Source of the DNA: Escherichia phage SZH-1
DNA length: 43,969 bases
Sequence record: NC_073319.1
Direction: 5' to 3' (one strand)
Positions 17,398 to 19,686 of the stretch are shown here, in pieces. The translations under genes and the position numbers were made by a program. Positions within the stretch are counted from its first letter, which is position 1. Each line of letters begins with the position of its first letter. The notes beneath the pieces are model-generated. The model worked only from the letters and a program-made list of their open reading frames with translations, searched no databases and was not told the origin of the DNA.

Positions 17398-17589
17398 ATG
17401 AAACACGAATACGACCGCAAACCAGCACGTGACATCGTACCGGGCGACATGATTTTCAATGTTAAGACCCGTCGCCCTGTTGCCGTTGATACGGTGTACG
17501 TAGAGTCGAACGGTAAACTGGTTATCGAAGACGTAACCGGTAACGTTACGGCGTTCGGGCGTAAAGAGTTAGTTCTGGTGGCGAAATGA
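17398..17589 (+). CDS. Hypothetical protein (63 aa)
   Basis: ATG with AAGGAA RBS. Confidence 0.5.
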   Translation: MKHEYDRKPARDIVPGDMIFNVKTRRPVAVDTVYVESNGKLVIEDVTGNVTAFGRKELVLVAK

Positions 17590-18269
17590 TTATCTGGTCA
17601 TTGTTCGACGGTTCGGGCCTCATGGCCCAACCGTGGGCGGAAGCGGGCCATACTTGCTATTGTTTCAACTACGACGGTGCCGACCACGGCGACTACGCGC
17701 GATTGGGCGCAAAAGTTGAACACGAGAACATCCACTATATAAACGCGTGGATTGACAATAAATTCGACTTCGAGGTTGCGCCGGATATTATTTTTGCGTT
17801 CCCTCCGTGCACAGATTTAGCTGTTAGCGGCGCAGCGCATTTCGAAACGAAGCGGAAGAAGAATCCAACTTTTCAGGTAGAGGCCGTGATTACATGCAAA
17901 GCGGCTGCGCGTCTGGCTAAAAAGTACAACGTACCTTATATGATTGAGAACCCGGTTAGCGTTCTTTCGTCTTTATGGCGCAAGCCTGACTATTCGTTCA
18001 ATCCGTACGAATACGGCGGCTATTTACCCGAAGACGACACGCACCCAATGTTCCCCGAATACATAAAACCGCGGGACGCGTACCCTAAGAAGACATGTAT
18101 TTGGGCGGGTAACGGTTTTGTGATGCCCGTTAAATCATGTGTCGCCGTGGTTGATGGGTACTCCGACCAACACAATAAATTAGGCGGTAAATCGGTGAGG
18201 ACAAAAACAATACGCAGCCTTACCCCGCGTGGTTTCGCAAAAGCAGTTCATGAGGCCAATCATGTCTAA
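17586..18269 (+). CDS. Compact DNA (cytosine-5)-methyltransferase-like protein
   Basis: Motif I LFDGSG, motif IV FPPCTDLAVSG, motif VI ENPV, RSLTPRGFAKAV near the C-terminus; only 227 aa. Confidence 0.55.
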   Translation: MIIWSLFDGSGLMAQPWAEAGHTCYCFNYDGADHGDYARLGAKVEHENIHYINAWIDNKFDFEVAPDIIFAFPPCTDLAVSGAAHFETKRKKNPTFQVEAVITCKAAARLAKKYNVPYMIENPVSVLSSLWRKPDYSFNPYEYGGYLPEDDTHPMFPEYIKPRDAYPKKTCIWAGNGFVMPVKSCVAVVDGYSDQHNKLGGKSVRTKTIRSLTPRGFAKAVHEANHV

Positions 18270-19686
18270 GTTTCAAAGGCGCGAGTACCAAAAGCTCATG
18301 ACTTCGTTCATGCTGCAACACCCTCGCTGTAATATCTGGTGCGGCATGGGAGGGGGTAAAACCTCCTCTACTATGTGGGTGCTTAATCGCCTGTTCCGCA
18401 ACGGGCAGCTTACGGAAGATGACCGCGTGTTAATCCTTGCCCCGTTACGCGTTGCATCAGGTACATGGCCCGCAGAACAAGAGAAATGGCAATTCCCGTG
18501 TCTGAGTGTCGTCGATGCGACCGGTTCAGAGAAGCGCCGCATCGCGGCGCTGGAGTCAGATGCTAACGTGGTGTGCACCAACTACGAAGTTATCGAGTGG
18601 CTGATTGACTACTACGGCAAAGACGACTGGCCTTTTACTGTTATTGTTGCCGATGAAAGCACGAAACTGAAATCATTCCGCAGCCGTTCTGGCGGAAGCA
18701 AGCGGGCGAAGGCGCTAAGCAAAGTGGCGTTCGGTAAGGTTAAGCGTTTCATTAACCTCACTGGCACACCGTCGCCAAACGGCCTCAAAGACTTGTGGGG
18801 GCAGAACTGGTTTATCGACGCTGGCGAGCGCCTCGGTTCATCATACACCGCATTCACCGACCGCTGGTTTAACTCGGTACAGAAAGGCAAATCCGCGATG
18901 GCGCGTGAGTATCATGCGCGCCCTGGCGCGGATAATGAAATTCACCAGAAGATGAAGGACATCAGTCTCACTATTGACGCCGCAGAGTGGTTCGGTTGCG
19001 AAGCGCCTATTATAGTGCAGGTTGAAATCGACCTGCCGAAGAAGGCGCGTCAGGCGTACATCGATATGGAGGAGAAGTTATTCGCGGAACTGGAGAGCGG
19101 AGAAGTTGAAGCGGCTAACGCGGCGGCGAAGACGTCAAAGTGTTTGCAGATTGCCTCCGGTGCCGTATATGTGACGGGCGACGACGGAGAAGCAACGAAA
19201 GAATGGGAGAAAGTGCACGACACAAAACTTGACGCACTTGAGTCGATTGTTGAGGAGTTACAGGGTGCGCCATTACTGGTGGCCTATCAGTTTAAGCACG
19301 AACTGGAGCGCATCCTGAAACGTTTCCCGCAGGCCCAGGCGTTTGCAAAAGGCGCTAAGGGTAATAAGCAGATGGACGCGTGGAACCGTGGTGAAATTGA
19401 GATTTTATGCGTTCACCCTGCGTCAGCGGGCCATGGTTTGAATTTACAGGACGGCGGGCATCATCTGGCATTTATTTCGCAAGGCTGGAACCTTGAGCAC
19501 TATTTGCAGGTCGTTGAGCGCATCGGCCCGGTACGCCAGAAACAGGCGGGCCACGAGCGCCCGGTGTTCCTGTATCATATCGTTGCTAAAGACACGCTGG
19601 ACGAGGTTGTTGCCGCGCGTGCAGACGAGAAGAAATCTGTCCAAGAAGAGTTGCTTAATTACATGAAGAGACGAGGTAAGAAATGA
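18262..19686 (+). CDS. SNF2-family (DEAD/DEAH-like) helicase
   Basis: ATG at 18262 (listed ORF begins at GTG 18229); GMGGGKT, DEST, LTGTPSPNG, C-terminal helicase motifs. Confidence 0.8.
   Translation: MSKFQRREYQKLMTSFMLQHPRCNIWCGMGGGKTSSTMWVLNRLFRNGQLTEDDRVLILAPLRVASGTWPAEQEKWQFPCLSVVDATGSEKRRIAALESDANVVCTNYEVIEWLIDYYGKDDWPFTVIVADESTKLKSFRSRSGGSKRAKALSKVAFGKVKRFINLTGTPSPNGLKDLWGQNWFIDAGERLGSSYTAFTDRWFNSVQKGKSAMAREYHARPGADNEIHQKMKDISLTIDAAEWFGCEAPIIVQVEIDLPKKARQAYIDMEEKLFAELESGEVEAANAAAKTSKCLQIASGAVYVTGDDGEATKEWEKVHDTKLDALESIVEELQGAPLLVAYQFKHELERILKRFPQAQAFAKGAKGNKQMDAWNRGEIEILCVHPASAGHGLNLQDGGHHLAFISQGWNLEHYLQVVERIGPVRQKQAGHERPVFLYHIVAKDTLDEVVAARADEKKSVQEELLNYMKRRGKK

Follow-up and report, generated by a model that had tools for sequence, protein, structure and literature searches.

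Is a 227-residue phage protein that carries signature motifs of the C5-cytosine methyltransferases a DNA methyltransferase, and which sequence would it modify? The question is raised by a gene in a 43,969-nucleotide DNA sequence (Escherichia phage SZH-1, NC_073319.1), referred to below in its full length as the window, which holds nearly all of the genome of an E. coli phage of the Kagunavirus type (Guernseyvirinae). A preliminary description had read the gene product as an unusually compact C5-cytosine methyltransferase-like protein, possibly a minimal anti-restriction methylase and possibly an enzyme with a different substrate.

The gene and its neighbours

The gene follows the order DNA polymerase A, VRR-NUC protein, two small ORFs, methyltransferase, SNF2-related helicase. 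The features that define its borders are:

17577..17581, plus strand: GGTGG, a Shine-Dalgarno-like sequence 4 nt 5' of the methyltransferase ATG (direct sequence reading; putative function)
17586..18269, plus strand: methyltransferase coding sequence, 227 aa, ATG start, TAA stop included (ORF list and translation)
18262..19686, plus strand: SNF2-related helicase gene (hz69 annotation; Pfam SNF2-rel_dom, E 1.5e-12)

The reverse strand beneath 17586..18269 is interrupted by many stops. The TGA stop of the preceding 63-aa ORF and the ATG start of the methyltransferase gene share bases in ATGA (17586-17589), an arrangement that suggests translational coupling of the two. At the other end, the helicase ATG at 18262 overlaps the 3' end of the methyltransferase gene by 8 nt and is preceded, 7 nt 5', by GAGG. 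The overlaps on both sides place the methyltransferase in a tightly packed operon. For the helicase itself, the mechanical ORF list gives a GTG start at 18229 (485 aa), while the hz69 annotation and the GAGG favour the ATG at 18262 (474 aa).

Over 2.7 kb around the methyltransferase gene, the window is 94% identical to Escherichia phage hz69 (ON556632) and to several Kagunavirus assemblies. The hz69 protein UTQ77382.1, annotated "DNA cytosine methyltransferase," has 99.6% identity to the window protein. Like the window, hz69 and other Kagunavirus orthologues have the order VRR-NUC, two small ORFs, methyltransferase, helicase, and carry the same allele, YSxQH, of a cassette described below. There is essentially no difference between hz69 and the window within the methyltransferase gene, whereas the 5' region of the adjoining helicase gene is mosaic. 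The annotation of this near-identical hz69 genome includes no second methyltransferase (none of the Dam type) and no TET-type, CmoA-type, dioxygenase, glycosyltransferase or base-hypermodification gene. Phage hz69 came from sewage in China and was isolated on E. coli. In a comparison with Kagunavirus BCH953P1, from which the swapped cassette was left out, codon differences number 21 synonymous and 6 non-synonymous; judged at this level, the gene is under purifying selection.

Motifs, fold and family

Conservation was counted over an alignment of 41 diverse members of the family to which the protein belongs, PHROG 757. The motifs are located as follows:

17601..17618, plus strand: motif I, LFDGSG, aa 6-11 (F-x-G-x-G), predicted SAM-binding loop after strand beta1 (hhalign and hmmsearch)
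17799..17813, plus strand: motif IV, FPPCT, aa 72-76, with the predicted nucleophile Cys75 (conservation, profile alignment, K42 numbering)
17946..17957, plus strand: motif VI, ENPV, aa 121-124, with the predicted protonating Glu121 (conservation, profile alignment, K42 numbering)
18081..18095, plus strand: YPKKT, aa 166-170, at the start of predicted strand 170-175, presumed counterpart of motif VIII (predicted fold, conservation)
18210..18236, plus strand: IRSLTPRGF, aa 209-217, motif IX-like (direct sequence reading)

All of the motifs that had been named at the outset in the ORF at 17586-18269 are present, with LFDGSG at aa 6-11, PPC within aa 72-75, ENPV at aa 121-124, and the RxLTPRGF-like element at aa 209-217. 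Given their conservation in the 41 members, these motifs are, on sequence comparison, not chance matches. Cys75 is invariant (41 of 41) and Pro73 is at least 90% conserved. Glu121 and Pro123 are likewise invariant and Asn122 is at least 90% conserved, so that ENP stands in place of the canonical ENV, to which it aligns. In motif I (F7-D-G9-S-G11), Gly11 is at least 90% conserved, and distant members of the family keep only this last Gly. Toward the C-terminus, Tyr166 is invariant, with Lys168 and Thr170 at least 90% conserved; in the IRSLTPRGF element Pro214 is invariant, with Arg210, Ser211, and Gly216 at least 90% conserved. Further invariant positions in the C-terminal third are Pro140, Trp173, and Pro181.

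Pairwise and single-model searches scarcely reach the canonical enzymes. Pfam model PF00145 scores 16.4 bits, against a gathering score of 22 (E 0.0065), over aa 3-102 only, and is matched by only three of the 41 diverse family members (E up to 0.01). The NCBIfam search with the window protein gave no match, and neither single-sequence nor first-profile searches of PDB sequences returned anything relevant. A more diverse family profile found M.HaeIII as its best PDB sequence match, weakly (E 0.016), over motifs I-IV. E. coli Dcm taken alone aligns in the PC region only (BLASTP E 0.36), with an hhalign probability of 0.3%. A profile of eight canonical Dcm-type enzymes of 302-472 aa, assembled from phage records, gave a clearer result. 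Profile-profile alignment of the family against it by hhalign has a probability of 75.7% (E 2.4e-5) and covers aa 1-130 only. It pairs LFDGSG with LFAGIGG, FPPC with GFPCQ (Cys75 with Cys177 of E. coli Dcm), and IENP with ENV (Glu121). The corresponding elements in the hmmsearch alignment to M.HaeIII are SLFSGAGG for motif I and PPCQ for motif IV.

The AF2 model of the window protein (pLDDT 90.3) has a class I SAM-methyltransferase fold that is closest to known C5 enzymes. Fold comparison placed it nearest to DNMT3B, M.HaeIII, and M.HhaI, with Foldseek in agreement; all of the best matches are C5-cytosine methyltransferases, with DNMT3 and bacterial DNA methyltransferases ranking above DNMT2. 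Sequence identity to the catalytic domains of DNMT3A and DNMT3B is 12-14%; these eukaryotic enzymes work as DNMT3L-assisted oligomers and act at CpG.

The region from aa 131 to 227 is different in kind. In the hhalign comparison with the eight canonical enzymes, it aligns to no canonical motif, and it contains no QxRxR (motif VIII), no GN (motif X), and no motif IX Glu. YPKKT is presumed, from its position in the predicted fold, to be functionally equivalent to motif VIII, and IRSLTPRGF resembles in sequence the motif IX consensus PRRLTPRECxRLQGFP of the canonical alignment. The observation that little room is left for a target-recognition domain holds up, with only about 34 residues lying between strand 170-175 and Arg210, where RSLTPRGF begins. 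In C5-methyltransferases this domain usually occupies 80-200 residues. Predicted secondary structure places two insertions, aa 140-169 and aa 176-214, on either side of strand 170-175. Together they make up some 70 confidently modelled residues, a region that, on the model, would replace the usual target-recognition domain.

The window protein thus has in common with canonical PF00145 enzymes (Dcm, M.HhaI, M.HaeIII) a Rossmann-type fold, FxGxG, the PC cysteine, EN(V/P), and an RxLTPR-like element, and by analogy its chemistry would be the same. It differs from them in length (227 aa versus 302-472 aa) and in having no QxRxR, GN motif, or alignable target-recognition domain. Motifs I, IV, and VI and the fold agree with those of C5 enzymes; the PF00145 score falls below threshold and motif VIII is missing. 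Judged from its sequence, and despite the nickname "Dcm," the protein is no orthologue of E. coli Dcm or M.EcoRII. Homologues of E. coli Dcm proper, such as those of phages KP15 and RB16, make up another group, of 302-360 aa. The "Dcm" of KP15/KP27, with its roughly 300 aa, was considered as experimental support and rejected, since it is a canonical Dcm homologue outside PHROG 757. The best filing is within a separate small phage family, PHROG 757 ("Dcm-like"), inside the C5-methyltransferase superfamily.

The match to PHROG 757 ("DNA methyltransferase") is full-length, with aa 1-226 aligned to profile positions 15-219 of 247 (E 5.6e-86). By tblastn against the phage collection, the family is present in 1,515 phage records, from Escherichia, Klebsiella, Salmonella, Shigella, Campylobacter, and Vibrio phages that include Drexlerviridae, Dhillonvirus, rV5-like, and JSE-like phages. 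A large protein collection contains 7,105 relatives, and a profile search of representatives at 50% identity found 2,010 clusters, nearly all of 200-260 aa. Compactness is therefore the norm of the family rather than a peculiarity of the window gene, and the preliminary wording "unusually compact" is apt against the aligned canonical enzymes but not within the protein's own family, whose members are mostly of 200-260 aa. For true E. coli Dcm homologues (E up to 1e-20), the number of phage records is only 363, which makes the compact enzyme the commoner "Dcm" among sequenced phages, though it falls under the PF00145 threshold. Annotations of the BASEL phages call this small methyltransferase family "Dcm-like."

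Two distant members are fusions. One of 563 aa (P0254) has a C-terminal region that by eye is Dam-like N6-adenine methyltransferase ("FLKWAGGKY" ... "DPPY"), and one of 348 aa (P0263) has a fused HNH_2 domain (Pfam E 5.9e-8). Both architectures would fit a DNA substrate. With a widespread family that is annotated already and includes a characterised member, the finding is genuine but ordinary; at the level of routine annotation, it gives the phage a single orphan cytosine methyltransferase of a kind that many phages carry. The family is nonetheless under-described, as it lies under the Pfam threshold and has neither a solved structure nor a recognisable target-recognition domain.

Characterised homologues and the proposed activity

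The homologue with the most direct data is the retron Ec86-triggering Dcm of phage K42, whose genome is 95.4% identical to that of the BASEL phage KarlJaspers (bioRxiv 10.1101/2023.08.16.553469). In that study, each of the four K42 mutants that escaped retron Ec86 was altered within the 711-bp dcm gene or immediately upstream of it, and expression of K42 Dcm was toxic only if Ec86 was present. Ec86 msDNA from cells expressing K42 Dcm had high 5mC, as measured by LC-MS against a 5mC standard, whereas a C82A/E128A/K175A/K176A mutant left msDNA 5mC low; changing CCTGG in the msDNA stem abolished Ec86 defence. Among 35 Ec86-sensitive phages from three families, 34 encode a K42-type Dcm, with varying identity to that of K42. 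The host was dcm+ MG1655, and msDNA methylation in the empty-vector control was low (bioRxiv 10.1101/2023.08.16.553469). In its activity on msDNA, if in nothing else, the phage enzyme thus departs from host Dcm; the difference may be one of site, position, or activity.

We identified the corresponding protein in KarlJaspers (Bas06, MZ501090) as bas06_0055, of 711 bp and 236 aa, annotated "Dcm-like C5 cytosine methyltransferase," in which residues C82, E128, K175, and K176 match the published K42 Dcm numbering. Along its full length it is 57% identical to the window protein, in which these four residues correspond to C75, E121, K168, and K169. The K42/KarlJaspers enzyme resembles that of the window in family, C/E/KK spacing, size class, orphan status, and occurrence in a virulent siphovirus. 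It differs in coming from Drexlerviridae rather than Kagunavirus/Guernseyvirinae and in having the "DNPGW" rather than the "YSxQH" cassette allele.

A second homologue, gp52 of Pantoea phage AAS23, has 54% identity to the window protein by tblastn. HHpred matched it at 99.7% to the C5-methyltransferase 3ME5, and DNA of the phage showed Dcm-type resistance in restriction digests, to which host Dcm may have contributed (PMC8004638). In the literature on PHROG 757 members that we examined, an anti-restriction benefit is not demonstrated and the recognition sequence is nowhere determined directly.

By analogy with the 57% identical homologue, we infer that the window protein forms 5mC in DNA. The reading as a minimal C5-cytosine methyltransferase is upheld by the PHROG 757 match, the hhalign result, the fold matches, and the 5mC made by K42 Dcm. 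We consider it quite likely that the protein is an orphan SAM-dependent DNA C5-cytosine methyltransferase of PHROG 757, probably acting at CCWGG and serving in anti-restriction. Taking the established chemistry of M.HhaI together with conservation as a guide, residues 1-130 would form the SAM-binding and catalytic half. Cys75 of motif IV would attack C6 of a flipped-out cytosine, Glu121 of motif VI would protonate N3, and the methyl group of SAM would pass to C5. The C-terminal 97 residues, with Lys168/Lys169 and RSLTPRGF, would hold the mini-domain of about 70 residues that takes the place of a target-recognition domain. The gene would be expressed together with those for DNA polymerase, VRR-NUC protein, and SNF2 helicase, and newly replicated phage DNA would become methylated, presumably blocking 5mC-sensitive restriction enzymes such as EcoRII. 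The likeliest target would be CCWGG, the EcoRII-type site, carried over from homologues with the other cassette allele. The expected price would be the triggering of Ec86-type retron defences, which respond to such methylation; by the same analogy, the phage is predicted to be sensitive to Ec86-type retrons. Its DNA is probably 5mC-modified at a short motif, which matters for cloning, restriction mapping, and nanopore basecalling.

A two-allele cassette and the choice of substrate

Within the otherwise well conserved gene, one block has been exchanged:

18039..18191, plus strand: swapped cassette, "YSxQH" allele, codons about 152-202, recognised from a drop in identity; presumed mini target-recognition region

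Compared with BCH953P1, the 5' part of the gene has 93.5% nucleotide identity; the value drops to 50-63% at about 18040-18190 and rises again beyond. At the protein level, identity to close relatives is 93-97% outside aa 156-200 and 53-60% inside. Two alleles of the cassette, "YSxQH" and "DNPGW," were counted in the family, across several phage families. The first, with the sequence ...EYIKPRDAYPKKT...GYSxQHxKLGG, is found in the window, hz69, LM08P2, and many T1-like and rV5-like phages. The second, ...DVIPARDAYxKKT...DNPGWAKLGG, is found in BCH953P1, KarlJaspers, and AAS23. This two-allele mosaic is a new observation, the rest of the gene's assignment being already known, and it offers a handle on the way in which so small a methyltransferase (about 220 aa) recognises its DNA sequence. 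We infer from the sequence pattern a role for the cassette in target recognition.

A second mosaic block lies at 18290-18400, in the 5' part of the helicase gene, with 58-63% identity to hz69 and LM08P2 and 90-96% to BCH953P1. This pattern is the reverse of that in the methyltransferase cassette and indicates recombination breakpoints around the gene junction.

Both of the homologues that have been probed, K42/KarlJaspers and AAS23, carry the DNPGW allele, and a CCWGG target for the window protein is therefore an extrapolation. The only serious rival to the preferred assignment, possible though unlikely in our judgment, accepts an active DNA C5-methyltransferase but takes the two alleles as alternative specificity modules, so that the YSxQH allele would target a sequence other than CCWGG. 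The sharpness of the exchanged block (some 150 nt, codons 152-202, 50-63% identical between flanks of about 93%) speaks for it, as does the position of the block between the presumed motif VIII and motif IX-like regions, where target recognition would be expected. Against it, the presence of a K42-type Dcm in 34 of 35 Ec86-sensitive phages and the dependence of defence on CCTGG in msDNA suggest a common target (bioRxiv 10.1101/2023.08.16.553469), the conserved residues Tyr166, Lys168, Thr170, Trp173, and Pro181 flank and traverse the cassette, and CCWGG is not depleted in the window. The stronger proposal that codons 152-202 constitute a swappable mini target-recognition module, in which an exchange of about 150 nt shifts specificity and the YSxQH allele methylates a non-CCWGG motif, we regard as doubtful; were it true, the family would provide a minimal, naturally modular C5-methyltransferase scaffold. 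Phage hz69, which has the YSxQH allele, is possibly one of the "Hzau" phages, a collection in which the Ec86-sensitive members reportedly encode K42-type Dcm; in that case this allele would already have indirect experimental support.

Site counts were also considered as a means to name the target motif and were set aside. The window has 94 CCWGG sites, with observed/expected ratios of 0.79 (Markov) and about 1.0 (base composition), so the site is neither avoided nor enriched; the count is compatible with CCWGG methylation and is not diagnostic of it.

Assignment as a DNA C5-methyltransferase also has to be weighed against other substrates and products, beginning with the notion in the preliminary description that the substrate might be a different one. 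An RNA substrate (DNMT2-like tRNA C5-methylation) or another non-DNA molecule would agree with the presence of DNMT2-type enzymes among the fold matches and weak sequence matches, and with the lack of a canonical DNA-recognition domain detectable by profile alignment. The idea is very improbable: DNMT3 and bacterial DNA methyltransferases outscore DNMT2, the gene is located in a DNA replication module, and a different substrate finds no backing in the homologue, which methylates DNA in vivo (bioRxiv 10.1101/2023.08.16.553469), or in the fusion of one distant family member (P0254) to a Dam-like DNA methyltransferase. Equally improbable is transfer of a group other than methyl, such as carboxymethyl from the Cx-SAM of host CmoA, to give a modified cytosine other than 5mC. 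The fold match behind this suggestion is one of eleven similar C5-enzyme matches and not distinctive, hz69 has no CmoA-like gene annotated, and LC-MS identified the product of the 57% identical homologue as 5mC (bioRxiv 10.1101/2023.08.16.553469). Least credible of all is that 5mC is a mere precursor for hypermodification (5hmC and beyond) by partner enzymes; phage pathways that combine a methyltransferase with TET/5mYOX are reported (bioRxiv 10.1101/2023.12.21.572611), but the annotation of the whole hz69 genome lists no partner of the dioxygenase or glycosyltransferase kind or the like, and the gene is flanked by small unknown ORFs and a helicase.

The preferred reading, a single orphan DNA C5-cytosine methyltransferase, can be set beside the pattern of sites that the genome avoids. 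GATC occurs at only four positions in the window (20721, 27357, 32354, and 35637), where about 151 (Markov) or 171 (base composition) would be expected. Several 6-bp palindromes are avoided as well, with observed/expected counts of 0/11.9 for AAGCTT, 1/11.5 for CAGCTG, 2/10.6 for AGTACT, and 2/10.5 for GGGCCC. Since no Dam-type gene is annotated in hz69, the phage seems to pair the avoidance of sites with a single cytosine methyltransferase.
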